From an uncultured Candidatus Saccharibacteria bacterium (GTDB lineage: Bacteria; Patescibacteriota; WWE3; UBA101185; UBA10185): a DNA stretch of 64,000 bases. Below the pieces are notes generated by a model. The model searched no databases, was not told the DNA's origin, and worked only from the letters and a program-made list of their open reading frames with translations. Below are positions 46,339-53,870 of the stretch, one piece after another (the stretch's first letter is position 1; the number at the start of each line of letters is the position of its first letter). The translations under genes and the position numbers were made by a program. The DNA lies in contig CAYLMU010000001.1 in assembly GCA_964385105.1 (NCBI GenBank), positions 369,936 to 433,935 of the forward strand. The letters run 5' to 3'.

Positions 46339-46644
46339 GTGGCTGAGAACGTAATCACAAAAGAACAAGTTAAAAAAATTGCACAATTGTCAAAACTGGA
46401 GTTAAGTGAGTCTGAAATAGTGAATTTTGCCGAACTATTCACTCAAACACTTAAATATATAAATGTGCTTGATGAATTAAATACTCAGGATTATGAACCT
46501 ACATTTCAGGTAACAGGTTTGATTAACGTATTTATGCAAGAGAATCAAAATAAAGCCACGCTTTCACAAAGTGAAGCATTATCAAATGCTACAAAAGTGA
46601 TAAATAACTTATTTGCTACAGGCGCCGTGTTTGATAGAGTATAA
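46339..46644 (+). CDS. gatC: Asp-tRNA(Asn)/Glu-tRNA(Gln) amidotransferase subunit C
   Basis: ~100-aa helical protein with the ITKEQVKKIAQLSKLELSESE N-terminus typical of GatC. It is immediately upstream of gatA. Confidence 0.8.
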   Translation: MAENVITKEQVKKIAQLSKLELSESEIVNFAELFTQTLKYINVLDELNTQDYEPTFQVTGLINVFMQENQNKATLSQSEALSNATKVINNLFATGAVFDRV

Positions 46645-46645
46645 A

Positions 46646-48100
46646 ATGGAGCTCAATAAATTAACTTTAAAACAAGCTATAGATGGTTTAAAAAATGAAG
46701 AGTTTACATCAGTTGAATTATCAAGAGCTTGTTTAAATCAAATTAAAAAGTTTGATAAAAAGATTAATTCGTTTATAACTGTAATCCCCGAAGACGTGGT
46801 TTTAGCTGAAGCTCAAAAGTCAGATGAAGAAATCAGCAAATTGGGTGAAAATGCCTGGAATGAAAAACCGCTGCTTGGAATACCTTATGCTGCAAAAGAT
46901 AACTTTAGTACAAAAGGAATAAGAACAACCGCAAGTTCAAAAGTTTTAGACAATTATATTCCCCCTTTTGATTCAACGGTTACGTTAAGATTAAAAAATG
47001 CCGGTGCTATTTTGCTTGGCAAAACAAATATGGATGCATTTGCTCACGGATCATCTACTGAAACCTCAGATTATTTTGTAACAAAAAACCCATGGGATAT
47101 AAGTCGAATACCCGGCGGTTCTTCTGGAGGGTCGGCAGCTGCTGTTGCAGCAAATATGTGCATTTTTGCAATTGGTAGTGAAACTGCCGGTAGTATACGC
47201 GGCCCTGCATCTTGGAGCGGAATTACAGGTTTTAAGCCAACTTATGGAAGAGTAAGCAGGTACGGAGTTGTTGCTATGGCATCTTCAACCGATTCCCCTG
47301 GCCCCATGACAAAAACAATAGAAGACAGTGCAATTATTTTAAAAGTTATCGCAGGAAAAGATTCGTTTGATGCAACTACTTCGAGTATTCAAGTTGAGGA
47401 TTATGTAAAGAATCTACAAAATATTGTTGATTTTAAAATGAGTGATGTAAAAATTGGTGTACCAAAATCTTATTTTGAAATTGATATGCAACCCGGTGTG
47501 AAAGAGTTGGTATTGCAGACTACGGAAAAATTTAAAGAATTTGGTGCAAAAATTATTGAAATAGAATTGCTTGATCCAAAATATTCTATTGCCGTGTACA
47601 CAATTTTACAGCGGTCTGAAGTGTCGTCGAATTTGGCAAGATACGATGGTATTCGATACGGCAATGACAGAACCGCATTTGGGTTTGAAGCTAAAAAAAG
47701 AATGATGCTTGGTGCATATGCATTAAGCGCCGGATATTATGATGAGTACTATGCAAAAGCTCAAAAAGTAAGAACAATGATTATTGAAGATTTTAATAAG
47801 GCATTTGAGCAAGTTGACATGATAATTGGGCCTACAATGCCAAATGTTGCAATGAAATTAGGCGAATCGGATGAAAATCCTTTGTTTGGTGAGTTTATAG
47901 ACATGTTGCAGGAACCAAGCTCTATCGCAGGTTTAACAGCTGTAAGCTTGCCGGCCGGATTGAGCGAGGGTTTACCTGTGGGAGTGCAGCTTATCGGTCA
48001 ACAGTTTAGTGAAAATAAATTATTTTGTGCCGGACATGTGTTTCAACAAAATACTGATTTTCACACAAAATTTCCCAGTTTAGAAAATTTGGAGGAATAA
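46646..48100 (+). CDS. gatA: Glu-tRNA(Gln)/Asp-tRNA(Asn) amidotransferase subunit A (amidase signature family)
   Basis: Amidase-signature GGSSGGSAAAVA with the Ser-cisSer-Lys triad context. The start is taken at the Met just after the gatC stop (the ORF track extends to 46613). Confidence 0.9.
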   Translation: MELNKLTLKQAIDGLKNEEFTSVELSRACLNQIKKFDKKINSFITVIPEDVVLAEAQKSDEEISKLGENAWNEKPLLGIPYAAKDNFSTKGIRTTASSKVLDNYIPPFDSTVTLRLKNAGAILLGKTNMDAFAHGSSTETSDYFVTKNPWDISRIPGGSSGGSAAAVAANMCIFAIGSETAGSIRGPASWSGITGFKPTYGRVSRYGVVAMASSTDSPGPMTKTIEDSAIILKVIAGKDSFDATTSSIQVEDYVKNLQNIVDFKMSDVKIGVPKSYFEIDMQPGVKELVLQTTEKFKEFGAKIIEIELLDPKYSIAVYTILQRSEVSSNLARYDGIRYGNDRTAFGFEAKKRMMLGAYALSAGYYDEYYAKAQKVRTMIIEDFNKAFEQVDMIIGPTMPNVAMKLGESDENPLFGEFIDMLQEPSSIAGLTAVSLPAGLSEGLPVGVQLIGQQFSENKLFCAGHVFQQNTDFHTKFPSLENLEE

Positions 48101-48490
48101 ATGGGTTTTTTTAGTAAATTATTTAAAATAAGCAATATCGGTCGGATGACTGTATCGACTCAAACAAAAAGCAGAATACAATCCGACTGGAACCAAATTA
48201 AAATTTTGATTGACGGAGGTTCGCCAAGTCAAATGCGTCAAGCGCTAATAACCGCAGACAAAGCTTTAGACAATGCATTAAGAGATGTTGTTGCAGGAGA
48301 AACAATGGGTGAAAGGTTAAAGTCCGCGTCTAACAAATTTGACAAGGTAACGTACGATAAAATTTGGAGGGCGCATAAAATGAGAAACGCTTTGGTACAT
48401 GAATCAGGGTATGAACCAAGCTACGGAATGCTTAAAAATGCTATTGAAGACTTAAGAAAGGGCTTAAACAAGTTAGGTGTAAATGTTTAA
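48101..48490 (+). CDS. small alpha-helical protein with HEPN-like R-x4-H motif, inserted between gatA and gatB
   Basis: 129 aa. Its start abuts the gatA stop and its end overlaps the gatB start by 8 nt. The RNALVHE motif matches HEPN Rx4-6H, but family membership is unproven. Confidence 0.45.
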   Translation: MGFFSKLFKISNIGRMTVSTQTKSRIQSDWNQIKILIDGGSPSQMRQALITADKALDNALRDVVAGETMGERLKSASNKFDKVTYDKIWRAHKMRNALVHESGYEPSYGMLKNAIEDLRKGLNKLGVNV

Positions 48491-51776: not shown

Positions 51777-53870
51777 ATGGCTGTAATCTGTCACAAATGC
51801 GGTCAAAGACCCGCAGTAATATCCGTAAATAAAATTGTAGATGGTAAGCAGGTGTATATGGCACTCTGTGAAGTGTGTTATACCGAATTGCAAAAAGAAA
51901 CATCATCTACTTCAAAGCTTGATAAATTCGGTCGTGATTTAACTAAAATGGCAAAAGAAGGCAAGCTTGACCCGGTAATTGGCCGTGAAGATGAAATAGA
52001 GCGAGTTGTACATATACTTTCAAGACGAACTAAAAATAATCCTGTGTTAATTGGAGACCCCGGTGTTGGAAAAACCGCAATTGCTGAAGGTTTGGCTCAA
52101 CGCATTATAAAAGGGCTAGTACCTGAACCTTTAAGAAATAAAAGAGTATTTGCACTTGATCTAGCTTTAGTTGTTGCAGGAACCACTCACCGCGGAATGT
52201 TTGAAAAAAGATTAAAAGACATTTTGGATGAAATAATTGATTCTCAAGGTCAAATAATATTGTTTTTGGACGAGTTACACACTGTTGTAGGTGCCGGTTC
52301 GGCCGAAGGCTCAATGGATGCGGCAAATATATTAAAACCGTCACTTTCACGTGGAGAATTGCAAATGGTTGGTGCGACAACTATTGATGAATACAGAAGA
52401 TATATTGAAAAAGATGCCGCGCTTGAGAGAAGATTTCAACCGATTGTTGTAAATGAACCATCGCAGGAAGAAACTATAGAAATTATAGAAGGACTTCGTG
52501 AAGAATATGAAAAACATCATCAGGTAAAAATTTCAGATGAAGCAATAAAAGCATCGGTAAAGATGTCTGATAGATATATTAGTGACCGATTTTTGCCGGA
52601 TAAAGCAATAGACCTGGTCGATGAGGCTTCTGCATTGGTAAGACTTTCACAGGTTGAAGAGCCTGAAAACTTAAAACAAGTTGAAGAAAATTTAAAGAAC
52701 ATTAAAGAACAGCTTAGAAATGAGGATTTGAGTGAAGAACAGGCAAAAGAGCTTGAAGAACAGCGTGACGATTTGGAAAAAGTTAAAGAAGAGCTTATAG
52801 ATATTTGGACAAAAACAAAGCTTGAAAGAATTCCCACAGTTCAAGAAGATGATGTTCTAAAAGTTGTGTCACGTGCAAGTGGCATTCCGCTTGAAAGACT
52901 AAGCGTTGCTGAAAAAGAGAAATTGCTGAATTTAGAAAGCAAGATACATGAACGTATTGTAGGACAGAATGAAGCGGTTGAAATGGTTTCTGAGGCCATA
53001 AGGCGTGCAAGGGCAGGTTTAAAAGATCCAAAGAGGCCTATTGGGTCATTTTTGTTCTTAGGACCAACAGGTATTGGTAAAACCGAACTTTCAAAAGCAC
53101 TGGCCGAAGTATTATACGGTGACGAAGACATGTTGGTAAGACTTGATATGAGTGAATACATGGAAAAACATACTGTAAGTAAACTTATTGGAGCACCTCC
53201 GGGGTACGTGGGATTTGAAAGAGGCGGAAACTTGACTGACATTGTTAGAAAAAAGCCATTTTCTATAGTATTGCTTGATGAAGTTGAAAAAGCTCATCCT
53301 GATGTATTTAATACTTTATTACAAATTATGGAAGACGGCCGACTTACTGACAGCAAAGGTAGAACAGTAGACTTTAAGAACACAATTATAATTATGACAT
53401 CAAACGTAGGGTCTGAGTGGTTACAAAGATCTGACATTGGATTTGGTATGGCCGGAGACAAAAAGGTTAGAGGTAAAAAAGAAGACTTTGAACAAAAAGT
53501 ATTTAAAGCTTTGCGTGAAAGTTTCAGACCTGAATTTTTGAATAGAATAGATGAGATTGTGATATTTGGCACATTGACCAAAGAAGATATTATGGAAATC
53601 GCAAATAGATTGTTGGCTCATACTCAAAAACGTCTTGCAGAACAAGAAATTGGAGTTGTATTTGAACAGCCGGCAAAAGAGTTGATTGTAGAAAAAGGTT
53701 ATGACGAAGAATTTGGTGCAAGGCCATTGCGCAGAGTTATACAAAAAGAAGTAGACAACAAGCTTTCTGACAAAATAATTGCAGGTGAAATTCAAGCCGG
53801 CGATACAGTTAGTGTGAGTGCCGAGAAGGGTGAGATTATGTTAAAGGTTGAATCTAGCGTTACGGTTTAA
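51777..53870 (+). CDS. ClpC/ClpA-like double-AAA+ unfoldase with N-terminal C4 zinc ribbon in place of Clp_N repeats
   Basis: Two Walker A motifs ([18 protein letters not shown]), a UVR-like coiled-coil M-domain, and the N-terminal CHKCG...CEVC. Confidence 0.8.

Follow-up and report, generated by a model that had tools for sequence, protein, structure and literature searches.

An unnamed HEPN-type protein family encoded between gatA and gatB across the Patescibacteria

We analyzed a 64,000-nucleotide (nt) stretch of contig CAYLMU010000001.1 (assembly GCA_964385105.1, positions 369,936 to 433,935), hereafter the window, from an uncultured Candidatus Saccharibacteria bacterium of the WWE3 lineage. 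In the window, an open reading frame (ORF) encoding 129 amino acids (aa) lies between gatA and gatB of the operon for the tRNA-dependent amidotransferase GatCAB. This protein, which we call X (residue numbers refer to X of the window), represents a new, unnamed family within the already known HEPN superfamily, and gatA-X-gatB is the dominant genomic context of the whole family across the Patescibacteria (candidate phyla radiation, CPR). X looks like a housekeeping partner of the gat operon rather than a toxin, and we put at roughly even the chance that it is a cytoplasm-facing, membrane-associated housekeeping HEPN RNase coexpressed with GatCAB. New here are the family itself, its membrane tether, and its conserved residence within an operon for aminoacyl-tRNA synthesis.

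HEPN fold, catalytic-type motif, and extent of the X family

The AlphaFold2 (AF2) model of X, with a pLDDT of 89.5 and a pTM of 0.80, contains helices at residues 20-39, 42-63, 82-100, and 108-124 and a short helix at residues 69-75, bearing out the description of the protein as all-helical in an initial annotation of this DNA. In Foldseek comparisons of the model, AF0298 (2hsb) and HepT ranked first with probability 1.00, TM-scores of ~0.6, and weak E-values. The HepT toxin structures 5yep_B, 7ae2, 8xdj, and 7bxo were among the closest, and other structural neighbors included the sacsin HEPN domain, GlnE, and the HEPN domain of Csm6.

As described by Anantharaman et al. 2013, HEPN domains carry an Rx4-6H motif where helix 3 ends or the loop to helix 4 begins, and the arginine is followed by a polar residue (N, D, or H); helices 2 and 3 are separated by an insert, and helix 2 contributes an acidic residue, typically within E-x3-[KR] (PMC3710099). 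X shares the four-helix bundle, the motif, the polar residue, and the insert, and D53 and D57 in its helix 2 are candidates for the acidic feature. R95-N96-x3-H100, within the sequence RNALVHE (residues 95-101, positions 48383-48403), closes helix 3 of the model, which is the canonical HEPN RNase site. X departs from the superfamily in three respects: the helix-2 acidic pattern is D-K-x2-D rather than E-x3-[KR]; the insert (TMGERLK), which is poorly conserved elsewhere, is the best-conserved stretch of X; and the additional residues W89 and K93 are invariant, accompanied by a highly conserved H92.

Conservation was assessed in three alignments, A1 (41 WWE3-type sequences), A2 (136 diverse representatives, 27-50% identity), and A3 (52 sequences). 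R95, N96, H100, and E101 are invariant in A1. W89, K93, R95, N96, and H100 are invariant in A2, where D53, D57, G66, R72, L73, and H92 are conserved at a level of at least 90%. R95 and H100 are also invariant in A3, and E101 is at least 90% conserved there. Helical periodicity favors one shared face for the invariant residues. A bare R-x4-H is weak evidence alone, occurring 0.065 times per 129 aa in the long ORFs of the window; RN-x3-H has zero occurrences in the 17,772 residues of those ORFs. The motif takes its significance from its family-wide invariance and its structural position. Together, the model and the alignments support a HEPN fold with an intact catalytic motif. The initial annotation had read R-x4-H as a HEPN motif and had named a missing HEPN fold together with unconserved R and H residues as grounds for abandoning that view; the predicted fold is that of HEPN, and both residues are invariant and occupy the canonical catalytic position.

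A word-indexed search returned 217 related proteins of ~127-141 aa from candidate division WWE3, Saccharimonadales, and the "Patescibacteria group," all named ones being labeled "hypothetical protein." In an exhaustive hidden Markov model search of 1.84 billion representatives, 714 clusters (50% identity) matched at E ≤ 1e-10, a number that rose to 2,212 when the cutoff was relaxed to E ≤ 1e-3. The best 150 representatives are all 75-199 aa in length, and none among them shows fusion of X to another domain, including GatA or GatB. A search seeded from a distant branch brought in Candidatus Woesebacteria, and the reference genomes brought in Nomurabacteria. Only small size and missing annotation would suggest that the reading frame between gatA and gatB is spurious or mere noise of one lineage, a concern voiced in the initial annotation. 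With 217 close homologs and 2,212 distant homologous clusters (hundreds to thousands of homologs), invariant residues, a confident fold, and a Shine-Dalgarno sequence, that explanation is already refuted, and we assign it virtually no probability.

No model in Pfam, NCBIfam, PADLOC, or PHROGs reached its threshold with X, whether queried with the single sequence, member by member, or with the consensus. Sequence searches of the PDB (phmmer and profile) yielded no HEPN match, the relationship being visible at the fold level only. Sub-threshold Pfam matches fell to seven HEPN families, HEPN_Swt1, RiboL-PSP, Cthe2314, pEK499_p136, DZIP3, Apea, and HepT-like_2 (E 0.049 with the family consensus), a pattern that fits the HEPN superfamily and no described family. 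Matches to HTH_7 (E 0.017), ZorA (E 0.017), ribosomal S20 (E 0.005, A2 profile), Avr3a, and Cas12a leave the conserved motif uncovered and were therefore set aside as noise from low complexity or helical content. A search of the accessible literature library found no paper that joins HEPN with gatCAB or describes the X family; for HEPN and Patescibacteria it returned archaeal-defense papers only, and for GatCAB and CPR nothing relevant.

Gene order at X loci

The gatA TAA (48098-48100) is followed at the very next base by the X ATG (48101), and the gatB ATG (48483) lies upstream of the X TAA (48488-48490), with AGGTG at 48475-48479 ahead of gatB (Table 1). These coordinates, confirmed from the sequence, agree with the initial annotation, in which the ORF begins next to the gatA stop codon and shares 8 nt with the beginning of gatB. 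Its further statement that X must be cotranslated with the amidotransferase was too strong: because of the stop/start overlaps, translational coupling of X to gatA and gatB is likely, although the overlaps do not prove it. X belongs to a codirectional gene string, which by Pfam reads PolX-LemA-HtpX(M48)-GatC-GatA-X-GatB-PolA-ClpB/C-like. A promoter/terminator scan found no terminator-like site on the + strand within the PolX-to-Clp string, and promoter-like sites in the window were at chance level. An Rfam scan of the window gave only four tRNAs and no regulatory RNA in the gat operon.

Table 1. Features of X and the surrounding gat operon (positions within the window)
Feature	Position	Strand	Basis
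gatC, 101 aa, GTG start	46339..46644	+	Pfam GatC PF02686, E 5.8e-9; ORF list
gatA, 484 aa from ATG 46646, stop TAA 48098-48100	46646..48100	+	Pfam Amidase PF01425, E 6e-129
GGAGG Shine-Dalgarno for X, within gatA 3' end, 5 nt before ATG	48091..48095	+	Read from sequence
X, single-domain HEPN protein, 129 aa, ATG start	48101..48490	+	ORF list
Short hydrophobic/amphipathic N-terminal peptide MGFFSKLFKISNIGR (type a), low-confidence model	48101..48145	+	Position of relatives' membrane anchor
Helix-2 acidic residues D53-K54-A-L56-D57	48257..48271	+	D53, D57 at least 90% conserved family-wide
Helix 2-3 insert G66-ETMGERL-K74, family signature stretch	48296..48322	+	G66, R72, L73 at least 90% conserved
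Extended motif W89-x2-H92-K93-x-R95-N96-x3-H100-E101, C-terminal end of helix 3	48365..48403	+	Conservation, models
R-N-x3-H part of extended motif	48383-48400	+	Conservation, location per PMC3710099
X stop/gatB start overlap, 8 nt, ATGTTTAA	48483..48490	+	Read from sequence
gatB, 433 aa	48483..49784	+	Pfam GatB_N, E 8e-106; GatB_Yqey, E 6e-20

Two sets of loci were compared. The reference-genome set comprises 80 loci kept out of 210 species-level genomes with a relative, and in 74 of these 80, gatA lies upstream and gatB downstream of X. The second set comprises 80 metagenomic loci, sampled deliberately from the most distant branch, that encode members with a transmembrane anchor and 28-54% identity to their own query; they were retrieved by the motif pattern HKxRNx[LIV][VA]HE and therefore inform on context, not independently on motif conservation. 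In this set, gatA and/or gatB adjoin X in ~69/80 loci. The complete gatA-X-gatB order is present in 41/80, one gat partner is found in 17/80 where the other side lies beyond the contig end, and 10/80 have one gat partner only, despite space on the other side. No gat gene adjoins X in ~11/80; metagenomic locus L119 has gatA. Among 127 related loci, 82 have a tight junction between X and gatB, either an overlap of stop and start by 1, 4, or 8 nt or a gap of at most 30 nt. The outer flanks vary by lineage, with PolX-LemA-HtpX and PolA-Clp in WWE3, ligA and MscS-DnaE in one 842-kb contig, and yet other neighbors in locus L089. That X occupies a fixed place within an essential operon in most of the genomes sampled argues for vertical inheritance. 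The gatA-X-gatB insertion, whose orthologs the initial annotation had proposed to look for, recurs in related and distant genomes; its spread throughout the Patescibacteria had been overlooked.

Several features of the window operon and its downstream neighbors were also recorded. The gatA start is ambiguous: the longest ORF begins at TTG 46613, a 32-nt overlap with gatC, and the alternative ATG at 46646 (MELNK...), 1 nt past the gatC stop, resembles the tight junctions elsewhere in the operon. The GatB_Yqey match of the 433-aa window GatB spans only profile positions 75-148 (residues 361-433), residues ~287-360 match no model, and GatB proteins of relatives in other lineages are 482-499 aa long; WWE3 may have a divergent or shortened version of the helical/tail region with which GatB measures tRNA. 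Farther downstream, 51777-53870 encodes a Clp/Hsp100-type AAA+ protein with a Cys-rich N terminus (CHKCG...CEVC) replacing Clp_N, for which Pfam gives no match in this protein and a match in the Woesebacteria homologue of locus L175.

Additional genes occur beside X in many relatives. A strongly hydrophobic ORF of ~60-65 aa, probably with two transmembrane helices, lies between gatA and X in 13 WWE3-type loci (L013, L017, L019, L020, L022, L042, L050, L053, L054, L057, L063, L064, and L078) and is missing from the window. It occupies ~190 bp immediately 5' of X (e.g., L013:3807-3998), and the product of this ~63-aa ORF could serve as a membrane partner in its own right where X has only a short N-terminal peptide. 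An SDR-type (adh_short) gene of ~230 aa is located directly 3' of X, between X and gatB, in 16 WWE3-type loci (L013:4384-5082, L019, L023, L031, L032, L033, L038, L050, L053, L056, L058, L061, L063, L064, L065, and L078). SDR genes follow X in further loci (L175:5545-6255 and L095/L096), including the non-gat order recF-X-SDR-NUDIX of Woesebacteria. X-SDR adjacency thus recurs with and without gat genes, which does not imply orthology among the SDRs.

A recurrent variant, gatC-gatA-PPIase-X-gatB, was found in L089:2086-2787, L177:4278-5000, L083, L098, L111, and L161 and probably also in L103, L104, L124, L126, L155, and L167. The inserted gene encodes a cyclophilin-type peptidyl-prolyl isomerase (PPIase; Pro_isomerase) that begins with basic residues and a transmembrane helix, making it a second membrane-anchored protein in the gat operon. 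Between X and gatB, five loci (L020:2123-2398, L022:4339-4635, L042:4366-4641, L054:4324-4593, and L057:4381-4659) contain a ~90-aa ORF with one transmembrane helix and a Cys-rich tail (C-x-C ... C-x-G-x-P-x2-C). In one genome, a 587-aa ORF judged by eye to be AspRS-like (L030:2235-3998) lies between gatA and X; if so, it would put the synthetase making the GatCAB substrate in the same operon. In one Saccharimonadales-labeled lineage, represented by loci L006 (1581-2045 and 2575-2886), L007, and L010, X lies between opposite-strand ORFs of 154 aa and 103 aa with no Pfam match. L006 retains only short Amidase-matching pieces upstream (a 72-aa gene), X still being located between a gatA remnant and gatB. 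Two loci with no gat genes, L130:4290-5618 and L132:4341-5816, encode a ~440-490-aa P-loop protein (GKSGIGKTKLLE) directly 3' of X, which may be a different recurrent partner of X in a minority lineage.

N-terminal membrane element and readings of function

The N termini of the family fall into three types. Type a, found in the window, is a short amphipathic MG[FIL][FL]xxLFK peptide; the window copy has only MGFFSKLFK, with a pLDDT of 53 for residues 1-10, and the hydrophobic pattern at residues 3, 4, 7, and 8 is conserved in A1. Type b has basic residues ahead of a VIGILKGLWWLISLPFR-like helix. Type c is a classical single transmembrane helix, modeled by AF2 at residues 2-24 in a relative. 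A hydrophobic 17-mer is present at the N terminus in 82 of 136 relatives. For type c (51/52 sequences), the ~4-residue tail before the helix contains 0.08 lysine plus arginine residues, compared to 3.96 in the 15 residues past the helix. Judged by this charge distribution, which obeys the positive-inside rule, the helix of the relatives is a predicted N-out/C-in signal anchor, an orientation that would have the HEPN domain face the cytoplasm, where RNA is. A Sec signal peptide was ruled out by the lack of a positive n-region and by the positive charges after the helix. The anchor, present across the family, is a point that the initial annotation had overlooked. Membrane-anchored housekeeping RNases are known in RNase Y, which has an N-terminal transmembrane helix, and RNase E, which has an amphipathic membrane-targeting helix. 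As predicted, X would resemble both in placing a short membrane element at the N terminus of an RNase domain that lies in the cytoplasm. The likeness is no more than an analogy, and their catalytic domains (HD/KH in RNase Y and S1/DNase I-like in RNase E) are unrelated to HEPN.

The HepT toxins among the closest structures, the similar size of those toxins (~130 aa), and the intact RNase motif would be in keeping with a toxin-antitoxin or abortive-infection module that settled in the gat operon, with X as its HepT-like toxin, and the initial annotation had suggested a toxin-like module. The remaining evidence makes this very unlikely. No MNT/nucleotidyltransferase or small antitoxin-like partner was found in the window, where the neighbors are GatA and GatB, or in more than 160 related loci; in loci with called genes and Pfam labels, no nucleotidyltransferase stands beside X, and in ~160 loci the places next to X are taken by gatA and/or gatB. 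X also lacks the tyrosine that is AMPylated in the RX4HXY motif of HepT and has H100-E101-S102 there, with E101 invariant in the WWE3 set. PADLOC gave only the ZorA noise match (E 0.017), PHROGs gave nothing, and 0 relatives were detected in 2.9 million viral contigs with a pattern that gave >574 relatives from metagenomes. Moreover, most sampled family members keep to one spot within an essential operon, the opposite of what is seen for patchy, mobile toxin-antitoxin and defense genes. Compared to the HepT/DUF86-type minimal HEPN toxins (Shewanella SO_3166, PDB 5yep; Aphanizomenon HEPN, 7ae2), X shows ~11-15% identity, lacks the tyrosine at H+2 that MntA AMPylates and an MNT neighbor, and has an N-terminal membrane element and a housekeeping operon instead of a mobile toxin-antitoxin context. 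The toxin-antitoxin reading was dismissed for want of the MNT partner, the HepT tyrosine, and defense or viral matches.

We favor a reading in which X would be a vertically inherited housekeeping protein of the Patescibacteria, a minimal single-domain HEPN with R-N-x3-H intact. A short N-terminal hydrophobic element would keep it on the cytoplasmic face of the membrane, this anchor being a true N-out/C-in transmembrane helix in most relatives and an amphipathic peptide remnant in the WWE3-type window copy. Transcribed with gatC-gatA-gatB and probably translationally coupled, X would be made alongside the amidotransferase. HEPN families that retain R-[NDH]-x3-H are metal-independent endoRNases with a composite dimeric site that produce 2',3'-cyclic phosphates (PMC3710099). 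By analogy with these families, X may have RNase activity, most likely as a metal-independent endoribonuclease that would act as a HEPN homodimer and generate 2',3'-cyclic phosphate ends, and its most likely role would be RNA processing or surveillance tied to translation. The most attractive substrates would be tRNA(Gln) and tRNA(Asn), mischarged or not, given where the gene lies and given that PrrC and RloC, two anticodon nucleases, offer a precedent for HEPN RNases acting on tRNA (PMC3710099). However, PrrC and RloC are large ABC-ATPase-HEPN fusions in restriction/defense loci, whereas X is a stand-alone protein with no ATPase in a translation operon.

Several points weigh against this RNase reading or loosen its connection to GatCAB. 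Because no known HEPN family model of Pfam or NCBIfam reaches threshold for X, the case for catalysis is built on fold and motif. The TMGERLK insert and the extra invariant W/H/K residues could equally mark a ligand- or protein-binding surface. HEPN RNases require a dimer, and X is presumed to dimerize; similarly, the membrane association of X from the window is proposed by analogy with its relatives. Regarding the locus, clearly unrelated genes, for an SDR, a cyclophilin PPIase, or small membrane proteins, occupy the gatA-gatB gap in a range of lineages, a repeated insertion that had been overlooked. A gene for a beta-lactamase, bro-1, lies between gatA and gatB in Moraxella catarrhalis (PMC8406222), one of the known exceptions that make the assertion in the initial annotation that gatCAB operons are normally contiguous an overstatement. 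This unrelated gene was gained at the same site recently and at the level of strains, whereas X is ancient and has stayed in place throughout most of the Patescibacteria sampled. An argument from position to function is weakened because other cargo has repeatedly been inserted at this site, and a gene caught between coselected genes may stay put without a functional link. X also occurs outside the gat context, in the orders recF-like-X-SDR-NUDIX (Woesebacteria), GlyRS-DHH/DHHA1-X, and aminotransferase-X. Because of the other cargo in the gatA-gatB gap and these members elsewhere, we rate a functional link between X and GatCAB, with a direct role in the pathway, at no better than about even. 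The roles of tRNA-directed regulator or accessory subunit suggested in the initial annotation are plausible.

The main rival to the RNase reading takes X to be a noncatalytic fourth subunit or membrane tether of the amidotransferase, in which the HEPN domain would bind tRNA, a nucleotide, or GatA/GatB and the anchor would localize GatCAB or the transamidosome. Gene order within operons often mirrors assembly order, and X lies between gatA and gatB with stop/start overlaps. The family-wide membrane anchor and a conserved surface that extends past the catalytic dyad (the TMGERLK insert, W89, H92, and K93) also favor such a subunit. Accessory factors of GatCAB have a precedent in Hp0100 (QueH), which stimulates the Helicobacter pylori GatCAB/Asn-transamidosome (PMC8406222). 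Hp0100 is a non-GatCAB protein functionally attached to the amidotransferase, a likeness of role and not homology; X, whose binding to GatCAB is hypothetical, is not homologous to it and has a different fold, and the literature consulted does not locate Hp0100 between gatA and gatB. In addition, the HEPN domains of nucleotidyltransferases and of sacsin, seen among the structure matches, are binding domains (PMC3710099). However, binding-only HEPN domains typically lose Rx4-6H (PMC3710099), whereas R-N-x3-H is invariant in the X family; none of the 150 best representatives is fused to GatA or GatB, and some members are encoded apart from gat genes. We therefore regard a noncatalytic subunit as unlikely.

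A further alternative is a regulatory HEPN that binds a nucleotide or small ligand, sensing a metabolite or second messenger (e.g., ATP or an amide-donor signal) and modulating the expression or activity of its neighbors with no RNA cleavage. HEPN was first defined as nucleotide-binding, the structural neighbors include the sacsin HEPN domain, GlnE, and cyclic-oligoadenylate-regulated Csm6, and X has a conserved pocket-like stripe over helices 2 and 3 and the insert. The models, however, show a single HEPN domain with no CARF or similar sensor domain, the invariant R-N-x3-H is an RNase signature, and no ligand can be deduced. Such a sensor seems to us quite improbable.

The RNase reading can also be extended to a more specific proposal, to which we give a small probability. 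Patescibacterial GatCAB would be a four-component, membrane-associated machine in which a cotranslated HEPN RNase polices indirect aminoacylation, for example by cleaving Glu/Asp-mischarged tRNA(Gln)/tRNA(Asn) when amidation fails, or by tuning tRNA pools. If true, organisms without GlnRS and AsnRS would possess a previously unrecognized layer of quality control for the genetic code, operating at the RNA level.

Implications

To our knowledge, HEPN RNases have, apart from a few eukaryotic enzymes of RNA processing, come almost wholly from conflict systems, namely toxin-antitoxin and abortive-infection modules, anticodon nucleases, and CRISPR effectors such as Cas13 and Csm6. Here, a large unannotated HEPN family (at least 714 and up to 2,212 clusters) behaves as a core housekeeping gene of a whole bacterial radiation and, in most sampled lineages, sits inside the operon producing Gln-tRNA and Asn-tRNA. 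For the HEPN field, X would be a naturally nontoxic minimal HEPN with its active site intact, and how its harmlessness is maintained is a question of interest. If X is an RNase, it would fill a gap in the poorly understood RNA metabolism of the CPR, and if it interacts with GatCAB, the picture of indirect aminoacylation would change. Either way, a "hypothetical protein" in hundreds of sampled genomes and metagenomic contigs gains a name and a hypothesis.

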